Shown: piece after piece, positions 14,084 to 24,378 of the stretch
How the letters are laid out: each line of letters opens with the position of its first letter
How positions within the stretch are numbered: position 1 is the first letter of the stretch
Source of the DNA: an uncultured cyanobacterium
GTDB lineage: Bacteria; Cyanobacteriota; Cyanobacteriia; Cyanobacteriales; Nostocaceae
Direction: 5' to 3'
DNA: 64,000 nucleotides
NCBI GenBank assembly: GCA_963706595.1
Contig: OY970166.1
Span: forward strand, 544,001 to 608,000
Position numbers and translations under genes: made by a program
The notes under the pieces: generated by a model
The model's input: only the letters and a program-made list of their open reading frames with translations
The model's database searches: none
Told to the model about the DNA's origin: nothing

Positions 14084-14237
14084 TAGGACTCCTATCTGAT
14101 TTTTGTTAGCTTACCCTACTCCCTACTCCCTACTCCCTACTCCCATTTCCCCATTTCCCCATTCCCCACTCCCTACTCCCTACTCCCCATTCCCCATTCC
14201 CCACTCCCCACTCCCCACTCCCTACTCCCCACTCCCT
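14084..14237. repeat. TAGGACTCCTAT-family MITE end followed by (CCCCACT/CCCTACT)n STRR
   Basis: Directly visible; same end at 31698, 35012 and 39800. Confidence 0.75.
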
Positions 14238-15675
14238 ATTTCCAAGAAAAAATTTCCAAATGAACAGATGCTTCATTCCCCAACACTTTTTTCCCTCGTT
14301 CAGGTAAGACGATATCAGCTATAAAACCATCTGCATTAGGATTAGGATTGATGGGAATGTGCGGCTCTTCATTTTCATAATTCCAGGCGTACTTAGCCGT
14401 GTAGAAACCATCTAGGACTGTGACATCGACGATCAGATAGTCAGACCAAAGGGGTAATTGATCAATATGGCTACCAAACAACCAGTCTCGCTCTTTTTTG
14501 ACAAAAGAATGCAACGCTAATCTAATGGCATATCTACAGGTAGAATCACCACTAGCTGAGTAGCTGGGAACCATGAAAGCTGTAAATAGTGGTATGGGTA
14601 TTCCCCTAGTTAATTCCAGTGTGATGGGACAATAATGAGCGATACTTTGTTCATGTATAGCCACAGGAAGACCACGCAGGGCAGATCGGACTTCCATCTG
14701 ATAAAAAGTATCGTTGCGATCGCCTAATTCAACATGATTAAGGGATAGTTTCACCTTAATATCACCAAATAAAAAGCGTTGCAGATTTTGATAAGCTTCT
14801 TCCGAGTTGACCATTCCATAACGCCCACCATGAGTCCGATAAATATAGGCGCGATGCGATCCTCTGACATAGGCTTTCTCAGTCTGAACTAGACCATCAC
14901 TTTGAAGACCTACCATCTTCTGTGCAGCACCAAAAGCTACATCGTAATCACGGGCATTTGTACCAATAATACAAAAAACTCGGTCTGTTGGAAAAGCGTC
15001 ATCAAGGCTTTGAGCATCAAAATCGTCAGGTAATAAATCTTTTTGCTGTGTTTGAGGTGTTAAATATTCATACATCCTCTGGGGTCCAAAATCATCACTA
15101 TTATTTAATTTGAGTGAATCTCTAATTTTTTCAATTACGCCATTGCCAATTTCAAAATGAATGCCACCATGAGGTGTACCATAAGTAAATAACTTATCAA
15201 TATGATCAATAGCTTGCTCGTTCTGCTCTGGATAAATCTTCTGTATGAGACTGCGACAAACAAGACCTCCCATAGAGTGGGCAATTAAGTAAACTTGATT
15301 TGCACCTGTGTGAGATTTAACAGTATTAATCAAGTCTCTCAAACGCGCTGCTACTTGCTCTATTGTCAGTCTGATAGCTGTCTGGGAACCCCAACTTTGG
15401 GTGGTTTCATCATAAAATCGGTAAATCCAAATAGATTTCGGGTTTTTGCTCAACTGTTGATCGTGCTGATGGTCAAAAACAGGTCGATAACCGTGATCAG
15501 TTATGAGTCGCAGCAGTGGACTCTCGAAAAAAAACTGCTCCGGGTTTCCTTGCACACCCACCCGAATATGTGCCGAGCCATGATTAAATCCATAAAATGG
15601 ATCTTCCACCGTTTGCTCAACGTCTTTATCTGAGCCGGCATATCCACGGACATAGATGATGGGTAAATATTTCAT
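14236..15675 (-). CDS. Alpha/beta-hydrolase (PGAP1/lipase-like) with C-terminal beta domain
   Basis: AHSMGG nucleophile elbow, GTPHGG, SDGLV. Confidence 0.75.
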   Translation of the reverse strand: MKYLPIIYVRGYAGSDKDVEQTVEDPFYGFNHGSAHIRVGVQGNPEQFFFESPLLRLITDHGYRPVFDHQHDQQLSKNPKSIWIYRFYDETTQSWGSQTAIRLTIEQVAARLRDLINTVKSHTGANQVYLIAHSMGGLVCRSLIQKIYPEQNEQAIDHIDKLFTYGTPHGGIHFEIGNGVIEKIRDSLKLNNSDDFGPQRMYEYLTPQTQQKDLLPDDFDAQSLDDAFPTDRVFCIIGTNARDYDVAFGAAQKMVGLQSDGLVQTEKAYVRGSHRAYIYRTHGGRYGMVNSEEAYQNLQRFLFGDIKVKLSLNHVELGDRNDTFYQMEVRSALRGLPVAIHEQSIAHYCPITLELTRGIPIPLFTAFMVPSYSASGDSTCRYAIRLALHSFVKKERDWLFGSHIDQLPLWSDYLIVDVTVLDGFYTAKYAWNYENEEPHIPINPNPNADGFIADIVLPERGKKVLGNEASVHLEIFSWK

Positions 15676-15833: not shown

Positions 15834-17087
15834 CTAATCAACCGTTGCTCCTTCCAACCAAATCTCTGCATCATCTGCGAGTAACTTTTCTGCTGCTTCC
15901 AACATAGATGCGGCGATATCTTTTAAATCTTCACGATTATTCAAGTAAGTTTTGAGCGCTGACCTGGGGTCAATACTGCTACTGGCGGTCAATTCCGGGA
16001 TTCTGGGGCGAGCCAATTGGCTGACTAATTCGGCTTGAATCGTATAGTTGTGAGCCGGAGTTAAGGCTGTATGGATGGAAGCGCCATCAATTATATCCAT
16101 CTGTTCCGAACGGAGTTTATAAATTAACCGCACGACAGCATCTTCAATATTATGTTTAGCGATCGCCTTCATTAAAGCAGCTTGTGGATCATCCGCTTTA
16201 GATATATCCACCTCTATAGTGCGGAAAGTCCGAACAGGTAAAGGACAAAATTCCCAATGAGCGCTTCCTCGCTCCAGTTCAATCATCACATAGCCTTTAT
16301 CTTCTTTTTCTTCGCTAAAATCAACCCGTTCAATACTTCCTGGATAAATCACCGGCGGGTTATTAGATTTATTCAAATTCTGGTGACGGTGGACGTGTCC
16401 TAATGCCACATAATCAAAACAAGGTCGCGTCAGCAAAGATAGCGGTAAAGTAAAACCCTTACCCACAGCTAAAAAACGCTCGGCTCCTAAAGTCGCATTG
16501 TCAGCCATTAAGTGAGCCAACAGCACAGTGGGAACTTCAGGGTCAAGACGGCGAATCTCTCCTTCTAAAACCACTTTTAAACGTTCTGTTAACAGTTCAT
16601 TCACCTCAGCCAAAGAAGACTTTTCCGTTTCTTGACGAGTCATCAAAGTTGAACGGGTGAGCCAAGGTAAGGTAATTACTTGGACTTTGCCATGACGAGT
16701 TTGAATACTGTGAGTGGTGACAGTATCACCCACAACAAAACCCCTCACTCCCAAAGTGCGGTAAATATTTAAACTCGCTCCTCCTACTCCTTGGGAATGT
16801 TGGTCATGGTTCCCGACTAACAACACCGTGGGAATATCTGCATCCACAAGCCGGCGAAACTGATTAGCAAAAGCTTCTTGCACATAAGGCGCTGGTGTAG
16901 CATCTGGGAAGGCATCACCGCCAAATATCACCAAATCCACCGTATCTTCTAGCGCTCGGTCAATACATCGAGATAATGTCTTGACAAAATCCTCTAATCG
17001 TGTATTTAGTCCTGTGGCGGGATTCATGCGTCCGTGGGAGAAACCGCTTCCTATATGGATGTCGGAAAGATGCAGGATCTTAATCAT
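15834..17087 (-). CDS. sbcD: Exonuclease SbcD
   Basis: LSDIH, GD.F, GNHD, LAH, ALGHVH, YPGSIER. Confidence 0.93.
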   Translation of the reverse strand: MIKILHLSDIHIGSGFSHGRMNPATGLNTRLEDFVKTLSRCIDRALEDTVDLVIFGGDAFPDATPAPYVQEAFANQFRRLVDADIPTVLLVGNHDQHSQGVGGASLNIYRTLGVRGFVVGDTVTTHSIQTRHGKVQVITLPWLTRSTLMTRQETEKSSLAEVNELLTERLKVVLEGEIRRLDPEVPTVLLAHLMADNATLGAERFLAVGKGFTLPLSLLTRPCFDYVALGHVHRHQNLNKSNNPPVIYPGSIERVDFSEEKEDKGYVMIELERGSAHWEFCPLPVRTFRTIEVDISKADDPQAALMKAIAKHNIEDAVVRLIYKLRSEQMDIIDGASIHTALTPAHNYTIQAELVSQLARPRIPELTASSSIDPRSALKTYLNNREDLKDIAASMLEAAEKLLADDAEIWLEGATVD

Positions 17088-17313: not shown

Positions 17314-20300
17314 ATGAGTAACAGCATGAATCTGGCAATTCAGGAGAAGATCAAGGTTTGGAAGGATAAACTTGCAGATTTCAGTAGCAGTAACCCTCTG
17401 CTTAATTTTAGTGAAAAGAGCAAAAAACCAAGGGTTAATATTTCTACACCACCTCTAATCCTATTTCAAAAATTTGTAGAAAGCGACTCTGGCGAATTTC
17501 CTGTCAAAGATTTGGAAACTGAACAAACAGATAGTGACCGCATCAAGCTTCTTGATAAACTGCGTAGTGAAGCAAAGAAAACATTAGAGGAAAAGGGTTT
17601 TGTTAGTTTATTCTTAGTCCTTGGTACTTTAAATTGGTTTGATACGGCAAATCATCAGGACAGGAAGGAAAAGCTAGTCTCCCCTCTGTTGCTGATTCCA
17701 TTAGAACTACACAAAAAAGGGAAAAAACCACCAGAATATAAACTTTATCTTGCTGATCAGGAAATTTCTGTTAACTTTATTTTAGCAAATAAGTTACAAG
17801 ATGAATTTAATATCAAATTACCTGAGTCTGAAACAATTCAAGAATTGGGATACGAAGGATTTATGAATACGGTACGTGATGCTATAGCTGAAAAACAGAA
17901 TTGGAACCTAGAAGAAATTGCTTATATTACCTCGTTTGAGTCCTTCAAAACAGCGATGATAAAGGACTTAGAACAACATCAAGAACTAATTGCTACTCAT
18001 CCGATTCTGCAAGGAATTGCTCTGAAAGAACAACTAGAGAATCAGGTTGGTAGTTTCAAGACCATCATAGACAAGGAACTGGATACAATTAATCCTAAAT
18101 TAGTATATCAAATATGTGATGCTGATTTTAGCCAGCAAGTAGTAATAGAAGCTGCCAAAGCAGGATTTAGTTTTGTAGTACAAGGACCGCCAGGAACAGG
18201 TAAAAGTCAAACTATTGCTAACATCGTTGCTGAATTAATTGGAAAAGATAAAAAAATTTTATTAGTTGCTGAAAAGCAAACTGCTCTTGATGCTGTATAT
18301 AAAAAATTACTGGAATCTCAGCCTTCTCTTAAAGAGGTATGTTTAAATTTGCATCATAGAGGTACAAACAAGATACAGAATTTGCTAGAAGAATTATATA
18401 AAACTAAAAGTCTGCTATTGCAAAGAAATGAATCAAAATCACAAGAGTCTAAATGGGACATCTTTTTTCAAGAATTGCAAGACTGCCGAGCAACTATAAA
18501 TAAACACAACGAAATGTTACATAAAACATATCAGCCGATTAATAAATCTGCTTTTGAGATATATGGGAAAATTCTTAAGCTAGAAAATGAAAAAGTTCCA
18601 ACATTAGATTTTAATATTTATAACTTAAAAGATTGGTCAGAAGATGTTTTACTGAAAGCAAGTCAATTAGTTGAAGAGCTTCAAAAATTTGAGGCTATTT
18701 TTATGGGAACACAAAACACTATCTGGTCAAATAGTCCTGTAAAAGTGTGGGATGCCTATAACAACAGTAACTTACGTCAAAATATTAATGATTTGCGTGA
18801 GGGAATTGAACTTGCCATAAACACAATAAATCGTTTAGGCGAATTATTAGCAATAGAACCTAATCATAAATTAGTAATTTTAAATTTACTAAGTTTAGAT
18901 ATGCTTTATTCAGCAGTAGGATATCTTGTTGCAGTGCCTCCCAAGTTTCCGCTAGTCTGGCTACAACACACAAATTTAAGTAGTTTGCAAAAGTATTTTT
19001 CTGAGCTTAAAAATGATATTTCTTATATTGAATGTGTAAATAGCGATTTCCAGAAAAATTATATTAACGATTTTTTAAGTTTAAATTTATCTGAATTACG
19101 AAAATTTCAGCAAAAACTAGAGACTCATAGAAGTATTTGGCGTTATTTTCAATGTAGTTATTGGCGCAGCCGCAAGAAAATAATAAAATTTCTAAAACTA
19201 AAAAAAGGGGTTACAAACAAACAAATAATTGGTGATATTAATAAAGCAATAAAACGTCAAGAATTTTTGTACAAGTTGAAAAATTTAAATCATGAATATA
19301 ATCAAGAATTTCGGGCGTATTTTGACGAAAAACTCCCAGAAAAAATTCCAGATTCAAATGCTATTGAACAACATTTAAATTGGTTGAAATTACTACAAAA
19401 GTATGAGTTACCTTCTCAGGGAGTAGCAGCAGCTATTTCTTCATCAGAAAATTTACAAGAACTGAGCAGTTTACTAAAGGATTTAGAAAATTCTCAAAAC
19501 TTAATCAAAGAAGGTTTCAAATTCATCAGGAAACACTTTCCACAGCATCCAATGACGAAAGTGGGCGAATTGGAAGAAAAACTTTTGCCAGAAGTAGAAG
19601 ATTTTATTAATAAATCCGAAAGTGAACTAAGTAGTTTTCAACAATATTTAGATTGTCAGCAAATAATAGAAAAACTTGAGTATTTTGGAGCTAAAGATTT
19701 TTTATCAAAACTGAAAAATACTAGCATAGCACCAGATTTTTGGGTTTCAATATTACGGAAAGGTGTTTATCATAACTGGCGACAATACATATATGATAGT
19801 TGTGAACTGCGAAACTTTAATCCAAAAATGTATGAAGAGAAAATACAAAAATTTTGCAAACTTGATGTTCAACAATACCAAGTAGCAATAGAGCGATTAC
19901 AACAACTCCATGCTAAACGTTGGCAGGAATGGTCTACGCAGCCAGAGGCGAAGAAACAGATTCAATTGCTTGAAAGCCAACGTAAATTAAAAACAGGTCA
20001 TCAAAAAATTCGTCAATTCATCAAAAATGCCCCTCAACTTGTTACTACCCTCAAGCCTTTTTGGCTAATGAGTCCACTAGCAGTTAGCCAGTATATAGAC
20101 CCAGATGCGGTAAAGTTTGATGTTGTAATCTTTGATGAAGCTTCCCAGATATGTACTGAAGATGCTGTAACCGCAATTATGCGAGCAAAGCAGGTAATTG
20201 TGGTTGGTGATGATAAACAACTACCACCAACATTTAATCCTGGTAACGCTTCTGGTAAGTCAGATGACGAACAAGAAGTATATGAAAGTTTGCTCAATGA

Positions 20301-21330
20301 ATCTTCAATTGTTCTAGAAAAATTTACTTTAAAGTGGCATTATCGTAGCAGACATGAAAGTTTAATTGCTTTTTCAAACCAAAAATTTTATGATTCAGAG
20401 CTTTTAACTTTCCCAAACCCGCTCAAAGATTCTAATCTTGGTGTTCATTTCCATTATGTTGAAGATGGTATATATACACCTGGTGATAATGGGCAAAATA
20501 ATATCCGTGAAGCTCAAACTGTAGCCGAAATTGCACTAAAGCATTTGCACGAAAATAAACAAAACCCCAATTTTTCTCTAGGAATTGTTACTTTAAATGA
20601 GCTACAGGCAGAAACTATACAGGACAAATTAAAGGAACTTATTTTAAGACATCCAGAAATTGAAGAAGAATCTGATAAATATTTTATTAAACCACTGGAA
20701 CGGGTTCAAGGTGATGAACAAGAAGTAATTCTTTTCAGCTTCGGATATGGATTTAATGCTGAAAAGAAGTTAAGTTTCAATTTTGGTCCTTTAACTAGAG
20801 CAGGAGGGAGGCGGCGCTTAAATGTAGCAATAACTCGCGCTCGAACTAAGTTTGTGTTAGTAGCTTCCTTACAAGCAGCCGATTTGCAACCGACAAAAGA
20901 AAACGCAGAAATAACACTGGTGAAAGAGTATTTTGAATACGCTTATAGTGGGGGTAAAAAATTAGACAATCAGGATCATTTTTATTTTTCAGAGTCTGAT
21001 TTTCTTTTTGAAGAATATATATATCAAGCTTTAACTAAACAAGGATACAAAGTAAAAAAACGGGTAGGTCGTTCAGCCTTTCCTATTGATTTAGCAGTGA
21101 TAGATCCCCGAAATACAGAGACAGAAGAATTTATTTTGGGTATTGTCTGTGATGGGAAAATTTACCATAAATATTCTACAGCAAGAGATCGAGATCGCCT
21201 ACGTATTAAAATTCTCAAAGATTTGAAATGGAATATTTACAGAGTCTGGTCTAGTGAATGGTTTCGTGACCGAAATGGTCAAATAGAAAAGCTTGTGGAA
21301 CATATAGAAAATCTATTGAATCCGAAATAG
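17314..21330 (+). CDS. DUF4011 - SF1 (UPF1-like) helicase - Vsr/MTES_1575-like endonuclease-domain protein
   Basis: WKDKL.D.S..NPLLNF; GPPGTGKSQT; FDEASQ; VGDDKQLPP; HYRSRHESLI.FSN; QGDE; RLNVAITRAR; C-terminal IDLAV..GIVCDG..YH..RDRDR..W..YRVWS.EW. Confidence 0.88.
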   Translation: MSNSMNLAIQEKIKVWKDKLADFSSSNPLLNFSEKSKKPRVNISTPPLILFQKFVESDSGEFPVKDLETEQTDSDRIKLLDKLRSEAKKTLEEKGFVSLFLVLGTLNWFDTANHQDRKEKLVSPLLLIPLELHKKGKKPPEYKLYLADQEISVNFILANKLQDEFNIKLPESETIQELGYEGFMNTVRDAIAEKQNWNLEEIAYITSFESFKTAMIKDLEQHQELIATHPILQGIALKEQLENQVGSFKTIIDKELDTINPKLVYQICDADFSQQVVIEAAKAGFSFVVQGPPGTGKSQTIANIVAELIGKDKKILLVAEKQTALDAVYKKLLESQPSLKEVCLNLHHRGTNKIQNLLEELYKTKSLLLQRNESKSQESKWDIFFQELQDCRATINKHNEMLHKTYQPINKSAFEIYGKILKLENEKVPTLDFNIYNLKDWSEDVLLKASQLVEELQKFEAIFMGTQNTIWSNSPVKVWDAYNNSNLRQNINDLREGIELAINTINRLGELLAIEPNHKLVILNLLSLDMLYSAVGYLVAVPPKFPLVWLQHTNLSSLQKYFSELKNDISYIECVNSDFQKNYINDFLSLNLSELRKFQQKLETHRSIWRYFQCSYWRSRKKIIKFLKLKKGVTNKQIIGDINKAIKRQEFLYKLKNLNHEYNQEFRAYFDEKLPEKIPDSNAIEQHLNWLKLLQKYELPSQGVAAAISSSENLQELSSLLKDLENSQNLIKEGFKFIRKHFPQHPMTKVGELEEKLLPEVEDFINKSESELSSFQQYLDCQQIIEKLEYFGAKDFLSKLKNTSIAPDFWVSILRKGVYHNWRQYIYDSCELRNFNPKMYEEKIQKFCKLDVQQYQVAIERLQQLHAKRWQEWSTQPEAKKQIQLLESQRKLKTGHQKIRQFIKNAPQLVTTLKPFWLMSPLAVSQYIDPDAVKFDVVIFDEASQICTEDAVTAIMRAKQVIVVGDDKQLPPTFNPGNASGKSDDEQEVYESLLNESSIVLEKFTLKWHYRSRHESLIAFSNQKFYDSELLTFPNPLKDSNLGVHFHYVEDGIYTPGDNGQNNIREAQTVAEIALKHLHENKQNPNFSLGIVTLNELQAETIQDKLKELILRHPEIEEESDKYFIKPLERVQGDEQEVILFSFGYGFNAEKKLSFNFGPLTRAGGRRRLNVAITRARTKFVLVASLQAADLQPTKENAEITLVKEYFEYAYSGGKKLDNQDHFYFSESDFLFEEYIYQALTKQGYKVKKRVGRSAFPIDLAVIDPRNTETEEFILGIVCDGKIYHKYSTARDRDRLRIKILKDLKWNIYRVWSSEWFRDRNGQIEKLVEHIENLLNPK

Positions 21331-21385: not shown

Positions 21386-23269
21386 ATGGAATCTACAGAA
21401 TTAGAAGAATTTTTAATAACTATACAAAAACTCCAATCGATAATGATTGGAGTTGCTACTAATCAACAGGAATATCGGATTCAAGATTATGAAGAGGAAT
21501 ACAAAGAACTTTATAGAGAAATAGTATCGCAAATAGAAGACTTTCAATCTGAGGGACTATCTATCGAAAATCCTAACAATTTTCAGTCACTCTGGGATTG
21601 GTATAAACATTGGAAAGCTAATTTAAGCACATTAGCTTGGCGAGGAGCGTATATTCACAACCTTTATCAAAATATTTATCATCAAATCAACATTATTATA
21701 TGCAAAAACTATATCAAACGAACTTCGCTAGAAATGTTAGATCATGAAATAGAACCTTCACAAATAGAAGAACTAAAAGTCCAAATAAAGACTATACAAT
21801 CTATGATGATAGAGGTTGCTAGCGAAGGAAATGCTATTTCTTTAATTCAGGATCATGAAGAAAACTATAATCAAATATATAGAGCAATTTATTTTAAGAT
21901 AGAAATTCTTAAAGCAAAAGGAATATCAGTTTGTAATCCCAATCAATTTTGGTCACTTTGGCAATGGTACAGTTTTTATTCAGAACAGTTAGAGAATGTA
22001 ATATCTGTCCGCCAAGAATACATAGATAACCTTTATGCAAATGTTCTCAAACCGATAGAGAGAGCATTAAAACAACACCGGAAAAAAACAACTTCTATTC
22101 AAGAATTTACTCAAGATTTACAGCGTCGATTTAACCAACTAAATGCTAGTCAACTTAACGATTTCACAGAAATAAGTACAAATTCTAGCAAAATTGTAGA
22201 AACATTTAGCCAGAGCATCGATACTTGCTTGCAGGAAGAAGGTTCAAAACAGATTCTCAATACATTCTCTGTTGCACCTACTCAATCTGTAGAAAATGTG
22301 TTACTTCAAACCGTAAATTATACTTCAGCTTGGACAGATAAAAATATTATGAATCCAGAAATATTTTTAGATCAAAAAGATATTAAACCATTAATTACGG
22401 CACTAAATTATTTTGCTCTTAAAGTGAATGTAGGCAGTGACCGCCAAAATATTTTAAAAAATTCTGATCTTGATACTGCGTTTTTAAGTAATTTAAGATA
22501 TGATACTGAACCTAGTATATTTTCTCAAGCATTAGTATCAGGATTCAAAACTTATCAAATCTCTTATAATCAGTTTAATTATCATCCATTAGTAAATTTA
22601 CTTAAATACCTAAGTGATGTCGCAGATATTTATGGATTCTCAGACCAAGCGGTAGAATTATTTATGAGATTAGTCGAAAAAGGTCAGGAAAACTTAAAAG
22701 CCTTGGCTGCTCGAAATACAGTTGCTAGAATCGAATCCCCTATAGGAAATGCGATAGGGACAGGCGTATTAATTACAAATAATTTCTTATTAAGTTGTAA
22801 TCATATTTTCACCAAGAACCAAGTAACAAAAGCATGGGTACGTCTTGGCTACCAAGCTAGTAATTACGAATCAGAAAAAGATGTATTAGAATTAGAAATT
22901 ATGAGGAGAAATTCTCGTCCTGATTATGCTTTACTCAAAATCAACACTCCAACACAACATAAAGCTATTTCTATTAATGAAACTTCGATATTAGATAGCG
23001 GACAAGAAATTCGTATTATTCATCATCCGCAGGGAAATCCTGTAGTAATTTCGGACTTGGGACAGATTATGCAAGTAGGAGATGATTACATTGACCATAA
23101 TCTGAAAACAGATCACGGCTCCTCTGGCGCACCAATTTTGAATCGCCAATGGGAACTGATTGCAATTCATCAAGGAAATCCGGGTATAGGACGTGCCGTG
23201 ACTCCAGGTTCAACAGGAGGTATTCCCATTCGTGCTATTTGGAATGAAATTTCAACGTATTTAGGTTAA
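21386..23269 (+). CDS. Multidomain trypsin-like serine protease: two tandem ~105-aa N-terminal repeats, helical adaptor-like region, Trypsin_2 domain
   Basis: Triad SCNH, PDYALL, GSSGAP; internal repeat IQSxMIxVA...IQDxEExY...NPNxFxSLWxWY. Confidence 0.8.
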   Translation: MESTELEEFLITIQKLQSIMIGVATNQQEYRIQDYEEEYKELYREIVSQIEDFQSEGLSIENPNNFQSLWDWYKHWKANLSTLAWRGAYIHNLYQNIYHQINIIICKNYIKRTSLEMLDHEIEPSQIEELKVQIKTIQSMMIEVASEGNAISLIQDHEENYNQIYRAIYFKIEILKAKGISVCNPNQFWSLWQWYSFYSEQLENVISVRQEYIDNLYANVLKPIERALKQHRKKTTSIQEFTQDLQRRFNQLNASQLNDFTEISTNSSKIVETFSQSIDTCLQEEGSKQILNTFSVAPTQSVENVLLQTVNYTSAWTDKNIMNPEIFLDQKDIKPLITALNYFALKVNVGSDRQNILKNSDLDTAFLSNLRYDTEPSIFSQALVSGFKTYQISYNQFNYHPLVNLLKYLSDVADIYGFSDQAVELFMRLVEKGQENLKALAARNTVARIESPIGNAIGTGVLITNNFLLSCNHIFTKNQVTKAWVRLGYQASNYESEKDVLELEIMRRNSRPDYALLKINTPTQHKAISINETSILDSGQEIRIIHHPQGNPVVISDLGQIMQVGDDYIDHNLKTDHGSSGAPILNRQWELIAIHQGNPGIGRAVTPGSTGGIPIRAIWNEISTYLG

Positions 23270-23289: not shown

Positions 23290-24378
23290 ATGAATTTTTA
23301 CCAGAGTTTATTTGACACTTTCAGCCGTGAGGCTCCAAAATATAAAACCCTTTTCCTGCCAAAATATCGAGTTGATGTGGATTATGATGACAACCCCATC
23401 GTTGCAGGTGAAGCCTATTGTCGGATTTTGCTAGTGGAGATGCGCTTGGCGAAAGATATGGAATGGCTCAAGCAACGGTATCCCCTTGTTCATGTGGCTG
23501 TTCGATTCAATCATGCTGGTGAATGCGTAACAATTCCTTACCTAGCTGCACCTGGGCAATTGGAAAAATCAATAAAAGATAATTTGGATAGAGTCATTCA
23601 GTGCAACTATCCTGTGACATCCTTATTTCCTTTCAATAGTGGCTTAGTCGAGTTACAGGCAGGCTTATTTAGTGTAGCTAGTGATGACTCCATCGGAAAA
23701 TTTATTAAGGCGATGGGGAGATTTTCTGAATTGCTACCTGTGCCAGAACTTTCAAACGTTATCAAGCTAGCAGAACCAGTATATAGAGGTATTGAGGATT
23801 TACTCAATATCGGTGAGCGTCGCCTAGAACTAGGCTATCAACAAACTTTTTCTGAAGCTAATGGAGGTGGTAGCAATTCCCTGAAAGCAGGTTATTTTGC
23901 AGCAATTTTAGCACAGGAACACAAAATTAATAATGATAATCTTTGTATTGTCAATGATAGCCTTTGTCTTGGTTCACCTGGCACTACAAAAACTTTTTTA
24001 CGTGACGGCAAACCCCTAGAAGGTTACAGCTATATGTTATTTCGTATAGAAAAGCGCAAACACCAAGATTGGAACTTATTAAACAGTATAAAAGAGCTAG
24101 TAATTAAAGCTCAAAATGCTATTTGTTCAGGAGAATATGAGAAAGTAAATAAATTTATTTTACCGGCTATTAAAATAAGTGTTCTCCAAAGTCCTGATGT
24201 AACCAAAGCAGACCGACGCAATATGATACTAAAAATTGAAGAAGAATTGAAAGAACTTGGTTTGCAGTCTACAACAGTCCAAAAGCGATCGCTTTATTCA
24301 ATTATGCAGCGACCCTTGCCAGAAATTGATCCAGCAACAGAAGCCGAATTAGCTTCCTTAGAGCAGCTTTTTAAGTAA
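23290..24378 (+). CDS. Hypothetical protein, probably co-transcribed with the protease
   Basis: 362-aa ORF 20 bp after the protease stop; no motif recognised. Confidence 0.75.
   Translation: MNFYQSLFDTFSREAPKYKTLFLPKYRVDVDYDDNPIVAGEAYCRILLVEMRLAKDMEWLKQRYPLVHVAVRFNHAGECVTIPYLAAPGQLEKSIKDNLDRVIQCNYPVTSLFPFNSGLVELQAGLFSVASDDSIGKFIKAMGRFSELLPVPELSNVIKLAEPVYRGIEDLLNIGERRLELGYQQTFSEANGGGSNSLKAGYFAAILAQEHKINNDNLCIVNDSLCLGSPGTTKTFLRDGKPLEGYSYMLFRIEKRKHQDWNLLNSIKELVIKAQNAICSGEYEKVNKFILPAIKISVLQSPDVTKADRRNMILKIEEELKELGLQSTTVQKRSLYSIMQRPLPEIDPATEAELASLEQLFK

Follow-up and report, generated by a model that had tools for sequence, protein, structure and literature searches.

A doubled unnamed four-helix domain on a cyanobacterial EAD8-trypsin protease encoded between a DUF4011 helicase and a putative effector gene

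Architecture of the locus and the protease

The window analysed here is a stretch of 64,000 nucleotides of cyanobacterial DNA, in which a gene for a 627-aa trypsin-like protease was studied. This gene is the middle one of a conserved three-gene unit, which was absent from the initial annotation. The locus is a low-GC island (33.9% vs 41.3%). The features are as follows (all on the + strand):

17314..21330, +, gene of a DUF4011-superfamily 1 helicase-REase_MTES_1575 nuclease, 1338 aa; putative sensor
21386..23269, +, repeat-repeat-linker-EAD8-trypsin gene, 627 aa (ORF call, Pfam and AlphaFold model)
21395..21694, +, repeat 1, an unnamed four-helix domain, aa 4-103 (alignment; own profile, 118 bits; model pLDDT 95)
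21758..22063, +, repeat 2, aa 125-226 (alignment and own profile)
22142..22339, +, predicted disordered linker, aa 253-318, 66 residues with pLDDT <50
22304..22351, +, stretch conserved at the DNA level (codons 307-318) and internal ATG (Met322); candidate internal start
22349..22714, +, EAD8 adaptor domain, aa 322-443 (Pfam PF19961)
22715..23266, +, trypsin-like serine protease with the triad H473/D513/S580
23290..24378, +, unnamed 362-aa gene; putative protease substrate and effector

Pairwise alignment of aa ~1-115 with aa ~122-238 of the protease gave 44 identities, corresponding to 38% identical repeats of ~100 aa, and at the DNA level 207 of the 339 aligned bases of the two copies are identical. 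Repeat 2 keeps 12 of the 13 family-conserved residues, with Ser instead of Thr at position 146. The N-terminal tandem duplication claimed in the initial annotation was borne out by the alignment score of 206, as 2000 shuffled alignments averaged 34 and reached 69 at most. All the motif pairs quoted there were found in the translation of 21386-23269, and the ATG at 22349 is in frame and encodes Met322. The helical unit before the trypsin domain, which had been taken as a possible EAD-type adaptor, is EAD8: the Pfam match covers aa 330-443 with 53-57 bits (cut-off 27).

The Trypsin_2 match covers aa 458-594 (64 bits, above the cut-off). The triad is intact, and H473, D513 and S580 are each conserved in 82/85 aligned rows, the exceptions being gaps and one Arg at 473. 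The protease matches V8, Esp and DegS by both sequence and fold, and its best sequence matches are glutamyl endopeptidases. T575 and H595 would stand at the glutamate-specificity pocket positions of V8-like proteases, and such a specificity is a prediction. The triad and the fold are those of the S1 type; proteolysis itself is predicted. The full-length AlphaFold model showed two four-helix domains, the disordered stretch 253-318, and then an ordered EAD8 and protease, with a domain packing that carries no confidence (pTM 0.53). A hairpin at 21429-21454 was rejected as a conserved feature, with energies ranging from -14.6 to -2.6 in 17 relatives.

Age of the duplication and fusion

The named homologues of the 627-aa protein belong to Nostoc, Anabaena and their kin, which points to a filamentous cyanobacterium as the likely source. 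Among 74 other homologues, 48 have two repeats, EAD8 and trypsin at 45-86% identity, 14 are ~472-aa forms with a single repeat, and 8 have two repeats with the protease truncated or replaced. A plasmid search returned matches to the trypsin part alone for the whole protein, and six weak matches for the repeat. The two repeat copies are 31-44% identical to each other in each of 17 thinned relatives. Among relatives the repeats are 54-57% identical, and identity in the linker goes down to 31% (aa 256-315, pairwise in the 17 relatives).

The repeat tree was reconstructed from 82 domains over 108 columns. Copy 1 clustered mostly with copy 1 and copy 2 with copy 2, across proteins with trypsin, PNPase, SEFIR and caspase domains; the support of the second-copy group is weak (32). 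The duplication appears older than the effector swaps. The fusion had been proposed as recent, and this was overturned by the 48 full-length doubled relatives with the same architecture; these relatives, the repeat tree and the divergence between the copies together rule out a recent duplication or fusion.

The repeat domain and its partners

The repeat has no model in Pfam, NCBIfam or PADLOC and no usable Atlas match. A Pfam match of CFAP300 on the repeats was weak, under the cut-off, and was taken as chance. Repeat 1 folded alone gave a four-helix bundle with zero beta strands (pLDDT 95). Its best structural match is the TorS sensor (Z 9.9, rmsd 2.9, 103 aligned), in the range usual for helical bundles; Foldseek found nothing at E <=0.001 in the PDB or in viral models, which does not make the fold new.

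A search over 1.84 billion representatives gave 176 matches at E <=0.001, and 145 of the 150 matches listed were new. Among these 145 listed relatives, 32 have a Pfam domain (E <=0.0001), always outside the repeat, and 113 have none. The Pfam partners among the matches listed are Ymh (8), PNPase (8), TIR or SEFIR (5), Abi_C (2), CHAT (2) and AbiJ_NTD4 (2), with caspase, Mrr, DUF4145, AbiV and metallophosphoesterase found once each; conflict-type domains occur on 32/32 of these Pfam-matched relatives. In P0098 and P0190 the AbiJ and Abi_C matches (Pfam, PADLOC AbiJ) are confined to the region C-terminal to the repeat, and the identity to repeat 1 in this comparison is 41% over 103 aa. The initial annotation had regarded the domain as Abi-associated. 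The association itself holds, since the repeat sits N-terminal to Abi_C/AbiJ in these two proteins; however, the domain is not Abi-specific, because other enzymes (Ymh, PNPase, TIR and Mrr) also lie behind it.

Neither repeat was matched by AbiJ_NTD3, AbiJ_NTD4 or AbiJ_NTD5 in Pfam. NTD3 and NTD5 gave no match in the whole genome at E <=10, and the NTD4 matches among the repeat relatives fall outside the repeat. By its sequence relatives, the repeat belongs with the AbiJ-type N-terminal domains in the general sense, being N-terminal to AbiJ/HEPN and other conflict enzymes, and it is a mobile domain that has no name.

The upstream helicase and the conserved gene order

The helicase gene is matched by DUF4011, AAA_11, AAA_12 and MTES_1575 in Pfam and by PDC-S37 in PADLOC (1161 bits); it is below the NCBIfam cut-offs for ProA (955 vs 1500 bits) and Hhe (633 vs 2000 bits). 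The repeats are present in 49/389 genomes of the family and in 0/10 genomes of the same genus. A set of 47 regions was analysed (G000, G309 and G455 were left out), of which 45 carry the repeat by our own profile and 44 have upstream sequence. The helicase lies directly 5' of the repeat gene in 43 of these 44 loci, with a gap of 31-123 bp, and it is also upstream in 7/7 repeat-bearing loci of the first locus set.

The effector has been swapped in nine family loci, where the repeat is on a different protein and the helicases are mostly 32-51% identical. The protein carries PNPase in 5/5 and bDLD3 in 4/5 of those scanned. A 184-aa gene with hydrophobic segments follows the repeat protein in 8/9 of these loci, and it has no Pfam or PADLOC match. 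The sister system (L123, L125, L126, L128 and L131-L135) consists of a DUF4011 helicase, a repeat-PNPase-bDLD3 protein and this 184-aa multi-helix membrane gene. Single repeats on other effectors had the helicase in 0/5 cases within the 10-17 kb around them, which indicates that the domain also works without it. None of the repeat, EAD8, the protease or the 362-aa gene was found at 13 other DUF4011 helicase loci (0/13).

A FastTree phylogeny with a midpoint root was reconstructed for 33 helicases, after 17 of 50 were omitted as close or partial and fragments of <1100 aa were omitted. The 22 repeat-partnered helicases form one branch (SH-like 100) and the partnerless ones fall outside, a grouping read from the tree itself. 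Since the helicase-repeat link has one origin on the tree, the counts cannot be taken as independent, and they could result from shared descent alone; they show persistence and not repeated convergence. The helicase carries no copy of the repeat, so that a helicase-repeat coupling could not be homotypic. No partner-specific region or surface stood out in the helicase comparison.

An sbcD-like metallophosphoesterase gene lies at 15834-17087 of the window, and a gene of the same size flanks the helicase in many related loci, which suggests a shared insertion site beside the sbcD-like gene. Past it, a 479-aa alpha/beta hydrolase (PGAP1-like; 14236-15675 of the window) was not a constant companion of the related loci.

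Splits or deletions affect several loci. In L129 (6564-7469) an in-frame deletion has brought the second part of the protease directly behind repeat 1 and one half of repeat 2, with loss of EAD8 and the region of the catalytic His; its helicase is split too, and this locus is probably decaying. The remnant at L078 (6675-7556) has lost the middle gene, so that a helicase fragment directly precedes a piece of the 362-aa gene.

The downstream 362-aa gene

The 362-aa gene follows the protease in 28/38 loci, where 5 of the 10 exceptions stop at a contig edge or close to one, and in 30/31 family loci. The protease and the 362-aa gene are a fixed pair across sensors. The gene had no match in Pfam (E <=1), PADLOC, NCBIfam or the PDB sequences (E <=1), and the Atlas lists it as 'hypothetical'. 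The protein belongs to no toxin or enzyme family that could be recognised, and none of its segments is strongly hydrophobic (mean hydropathy peaks at 0.81); an amphipathic stretch near aa 132-177 is its sole toxin-like signal. 'DADA-Ligase', which is named after EAD8+Trypsin in three published rows of PMC8195603, was considered for this family and not adopted, as there was no Pfam or PDB-sequence match at E <=1.

Two loci differ from this pattern. L097 retains the helicase and the protease, and the 362-aa gene is missing; its protease (L097:6378-8597) is 740 aa long, with an additional N-terminal part the size of EAD1 ahead of the repeats, and agrees in length and layout with P0034, in which Pfam finds EAD1. 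L077 (7392-8480) is distantly related to the 362-aa family (23% identity); its neighbours are an AAA_15/AAA_21 ATPase and an AAA_35 protein, and EAD8-trypsin was not detected in the region around the locus.

EAD8 and the usual loss of its partner gene

EADs have been proposed, in the accessible parts of two reports, to link effectors with sensors via homotypic pairing (PMC7159879; bioRxiv 2023.09.22.558884). EAD8 has one match, by Pfam and by our own sensor-type profile, in this genome, which is a single contig and 94% complete as judged from markers; it is also the sole copy in 2/4 related genomes. The second EAD8 expected of an EAD-coupled system thus appears to be absent both nearby and elsewhere in the genome. 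Eighteen repeat-less loci extend at least 400 bp beyond the 362-aa gene, and in 15/18 that gene is followed by a second EAD8; six of these 15 helped to build the profile, one is a weak match and one has a broken frame. The second EAD8 of the repeat-less loci is fused to NACHT, iSTAND, GAF, WD40-bearing or other proteins. In repeat-fused loci it was found in 1/7 and 0/30, so the second EAD8 gene is usually lost there. The simplest reading is that the helicase and the repeats have taken the place of the EAD8 sensor. L018 looks like an intermediate, as it combines a single repeat with the helicase and EAD8 partners.

Two classes of EAD8 occur among P0004-P0069, ~60-73% and 35-47% identical to this EAD8. 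They do not track repeat identity, a hint that recombination has exchanged the adaptor. EAD8-trypsin is also found on other N-terminal parts, namely an unknown one, an ATPase, bDLD1, HEAT repeats and a ricin-type lectin (L034:4819-6951, L035:2408-4492, L003:3275-4594, P0070 and P0071); the EAD8-trypsin module has been fused repeatedly.

The candidate internal start at Met322

Two translation products had been suggested from the internal ATG. Homologues that start there do exist: 60/89 shorter EAD8-bearing homologues begin exactly at the equivalent of Met322, two of them being re-annotations of long genes. Met322 is kept in 82/83 long fusions, and Phe, Pro and Ile are tolerated at this position in other sequences. 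The true stand-alone EAD8 genes have short open frames upstream and no longer ones. Against an internal start, P324, F327 and L328 equal Met322 in conservation, Met20 and Met141 reach 94%, and Met322 lies in the ordered part of the AlphaFold model.

The start was further analysed in a thinned set of 17 out of 27 genes. Of all 12-codon windows, codons 307-318 show the strongest third-position conservation beyond that of the amino acids (+0.19, sd 0.058). A second measure puts them at rank 4-5 of 615, where only the 3' end of the gene, just ahead of where the next gene starts, is higher. Weak anti-SD pairing precedes Met322 in 17/17 genes, with a mean of -3.0 vs -0.8 for 76 other Mets, of which 16% do equally well. 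Speaking against the start, the GGA lies 14 bases from the ATG of Met322, and no unusual signal of open local structure was found at Met322 in the 17 genes. A shorter EAD8-protease product from Met322 would be a separate addition to the main explanation; we hold it as less certain than that explanation and as somewhat less likely than not.

Two other features around Met322 were considered and rejected. An internal sigma-70 promoter was weak: a -10-like box occurs in 7/17 genes, the scan found none there, and there was no excess over shuffles. A programmed frameshift ending just before Met322 had no conserved slippery site, and the other frame, which has a stop in 26/27 genes, is open for 3-43 codons.

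Comparison with known systems

The accessible parts of PMC7159879, PMC8195603 and bioRxiv 2023.09.22.558884 describe EAD8-trypsin/EAD8-sensor systems, in which EAD8 is likewise fused to trypsin. The source data of PMC8195603, as far as available, include the orders 'EAD8+Trypsin_2 -> ? -> EAD8+iSTAND2 -> MoxR', which is the order of the repeat-less loci here, and 'EAD8+Trypsin -> DADA-Ligase'. The present locus differs in that the second EAD8 is gone, two unnamed N-terminal domains are added and a DUF4011 helicase lies upstream. Proteins of 560-687 aa in 'PNPase+bDLD3 -> 4TM', with unnamed genes upstream and no domain named at the N terminus, are also among the matches listed from PMC8195603.

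In Hachiman-trypsin-MBL, according to the available text, a helicase-activated trypsin cleaves its partner (PMC12799240; bioRxiv 2025.09.03.673762). This system and the other nuclease-protease pairs of these two reports share with the present locus a helicase sensor (putative here), a trypsin-like protease and an adjacent partner gene. However, the helicase here is a DUF4011/SF1 helicase with its own nuclease instead of HamB, the 362-aa partner is not an MBL (it has no family match), and EAD8 and the repeats are added. The protease-effector modules of bioRxiv 2025.11.14.688446, in its accessible part (Pepco/Trypco, EACC1, alpha/beta hydrolase and gasdermin), show the same fixed protease-neighbour pair with varied sensors; by the matches found here, the 362-aa neighbour corresponds to none of the ten families given there.

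The AbiJ NTD1-5 of PMC3710099 resemble the repeat in the text available: they are ~100 aa, helical and N-terminal to AbiJ, Ymh, TIR and Mrr. The partner list of the repeat resembles that described for AbiJ-NTD2; AbiJ-NTD2 is described with a beta strand, whereas the predicted model of the repeat has none. The accessible text of PMC3710099 says nothing of tandem AbiJ NTDs or of a link to a helicase.

Hhe, Prometheus ProA and PDC-S37 have the DUF4011-helicase-MTES_1575 core in common with the present helicase, which is shorter (1338 aa vs model lengths of 1550-1911) and paired with downstream effector genes. DUF4011 also serves as a hotspot boundary marker in the accessible part of bioRxiv 2022.11.11.516204. 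No description of the helicase-repeat link was found among the accessible papers listed on EAD8, DUF4011, Prometheus/ProA, the AbiJ NTDs, protease activation and internal initiation, a body that lies apart from subscription journals and bioRxiv supplements. The locus adds an unnamed domain and an unnamed probable effector to the known EAD and protease-effector logic.

Proposed mechanism and alternative explanations

These genes might form a three-part anti-phage switch, which we regard as probable with some reserve. The DUF4011 helicase would sense foreign or phage DNA, and the doubled four-helix domain would contact the helicase and couple the protease to it as a tether or by clustering. The protease would then cleave the 362-aa protein and release a likely killing effector, presumed to be toxic. 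The doubled domain may in this way link the helicase to interchangeable killing modules. This mechanism follows the precedent of Hachiman-trypsin-MBL and the general protease-effector logic. It is favoured by the conserved gene order, the fixed protease-neighbour pair, the effector swaps beneath an unchanged helicase-repeat link and the usual loss of the second EAD8 gene. Speaking against it are the single origin of the link, a helicase that has neither a repeat copy nor a partner-specific region, the lone repeats away from any helicase, the scant toxin-like signal of the 362-aa protein, the retention of helicase and protease without it in L097, and the decayed loci. By analogy, the PNPase branch may parallel the protease branch, with a sensor, a repeat-linked signalling enzyme and a membrane protein.

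The repeats could instead be sensors of their own, with a phage product, a host protein or DNA damage caused by the helicase-nuclease as the target. Their doubling would then serve avidity, and the helicase would be co-transcribed with them but make no contact. Such a role would fit the occurrence of the domain alone before AbiJ, Ymh, AbiV, TIR and Mrr with no helicase nearby, the same conserved residue set in both copies, and the proposal in the available text of PMC3710099 that AbiJ N-terminal domains bind viral components; but it leaves unexplained why the doubled copies have stayed beside one helicase clade through effector swaps, and we consider it rather unlikely.

A more extended form of the switch joins several proposals, and their conjunction is improbable. 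The repeat would be a new helicase adaptor, docking swappable trypsin, PNPase, SEFIR and caspase parts on DUF4011 helicase-nucleases, and the 362-aa proteins would be a new family of protease-activated executioners. Both partners of an EAD pair would also come from this one gene: its long product would anchor EAD8 on the helicase, replacing the lost sensor gene, and the short product from Met322 would be recruited EAD8-to-EAD8 and amplify protease activation.

Unrelated enzymes lie behind the same repeats and repeat-free stand-alone EAD8-trypsin genes exist, both of which are hard to reconcile with repeats that act as a brake, holding the protease or the helicase nuclease inactive until they are displaced or cut at the linker. 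The former would be difficult for an active-site inhibitor in particular, and the packing of the domains in the full-length model carries no confidence (pTM 0.53). The 66-residue disordered linker is a plausible cleavage site, and the accessible text of PMC3710099 also proposes that AbiJ N-terminal domains act as antitoxins; even so, a brake seems distinctly improbable. Finally, it is very improbable that these genes are inherited neighbours in an sbcD-side defence hotspot, with the repeats as the passenger of an old fusion and the short EAD8-protease as the working product: the helicase-repeat linkage does have one origin, the sbcD-like flank is common to many Nostoc-type loci, and L015, L016 and L094 lost the repeat frame with the EAD8-protease frame still open, yet the repeats remain 54-57% identical among relatives against 31% for the linker, and the helicase spacing is fixed also at loci with other flanks and other effectors.

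In the three-part switch, a clade of DUF4011 helicases seems to act with downstream effectors. The unnamed domain is widespread before abortive-infection enzymes, and if our reading is right, it would offer a handle on what AbiJ-type N-terminal domains bind. The 362-aa family is conserved and travels with EAD8-trypsin, and it would then be a new effector in protease-gated immunity. The switch, if correct, would represent a new sensor route for protease-gated bacterial immunity in multicellular cyanobacteria.
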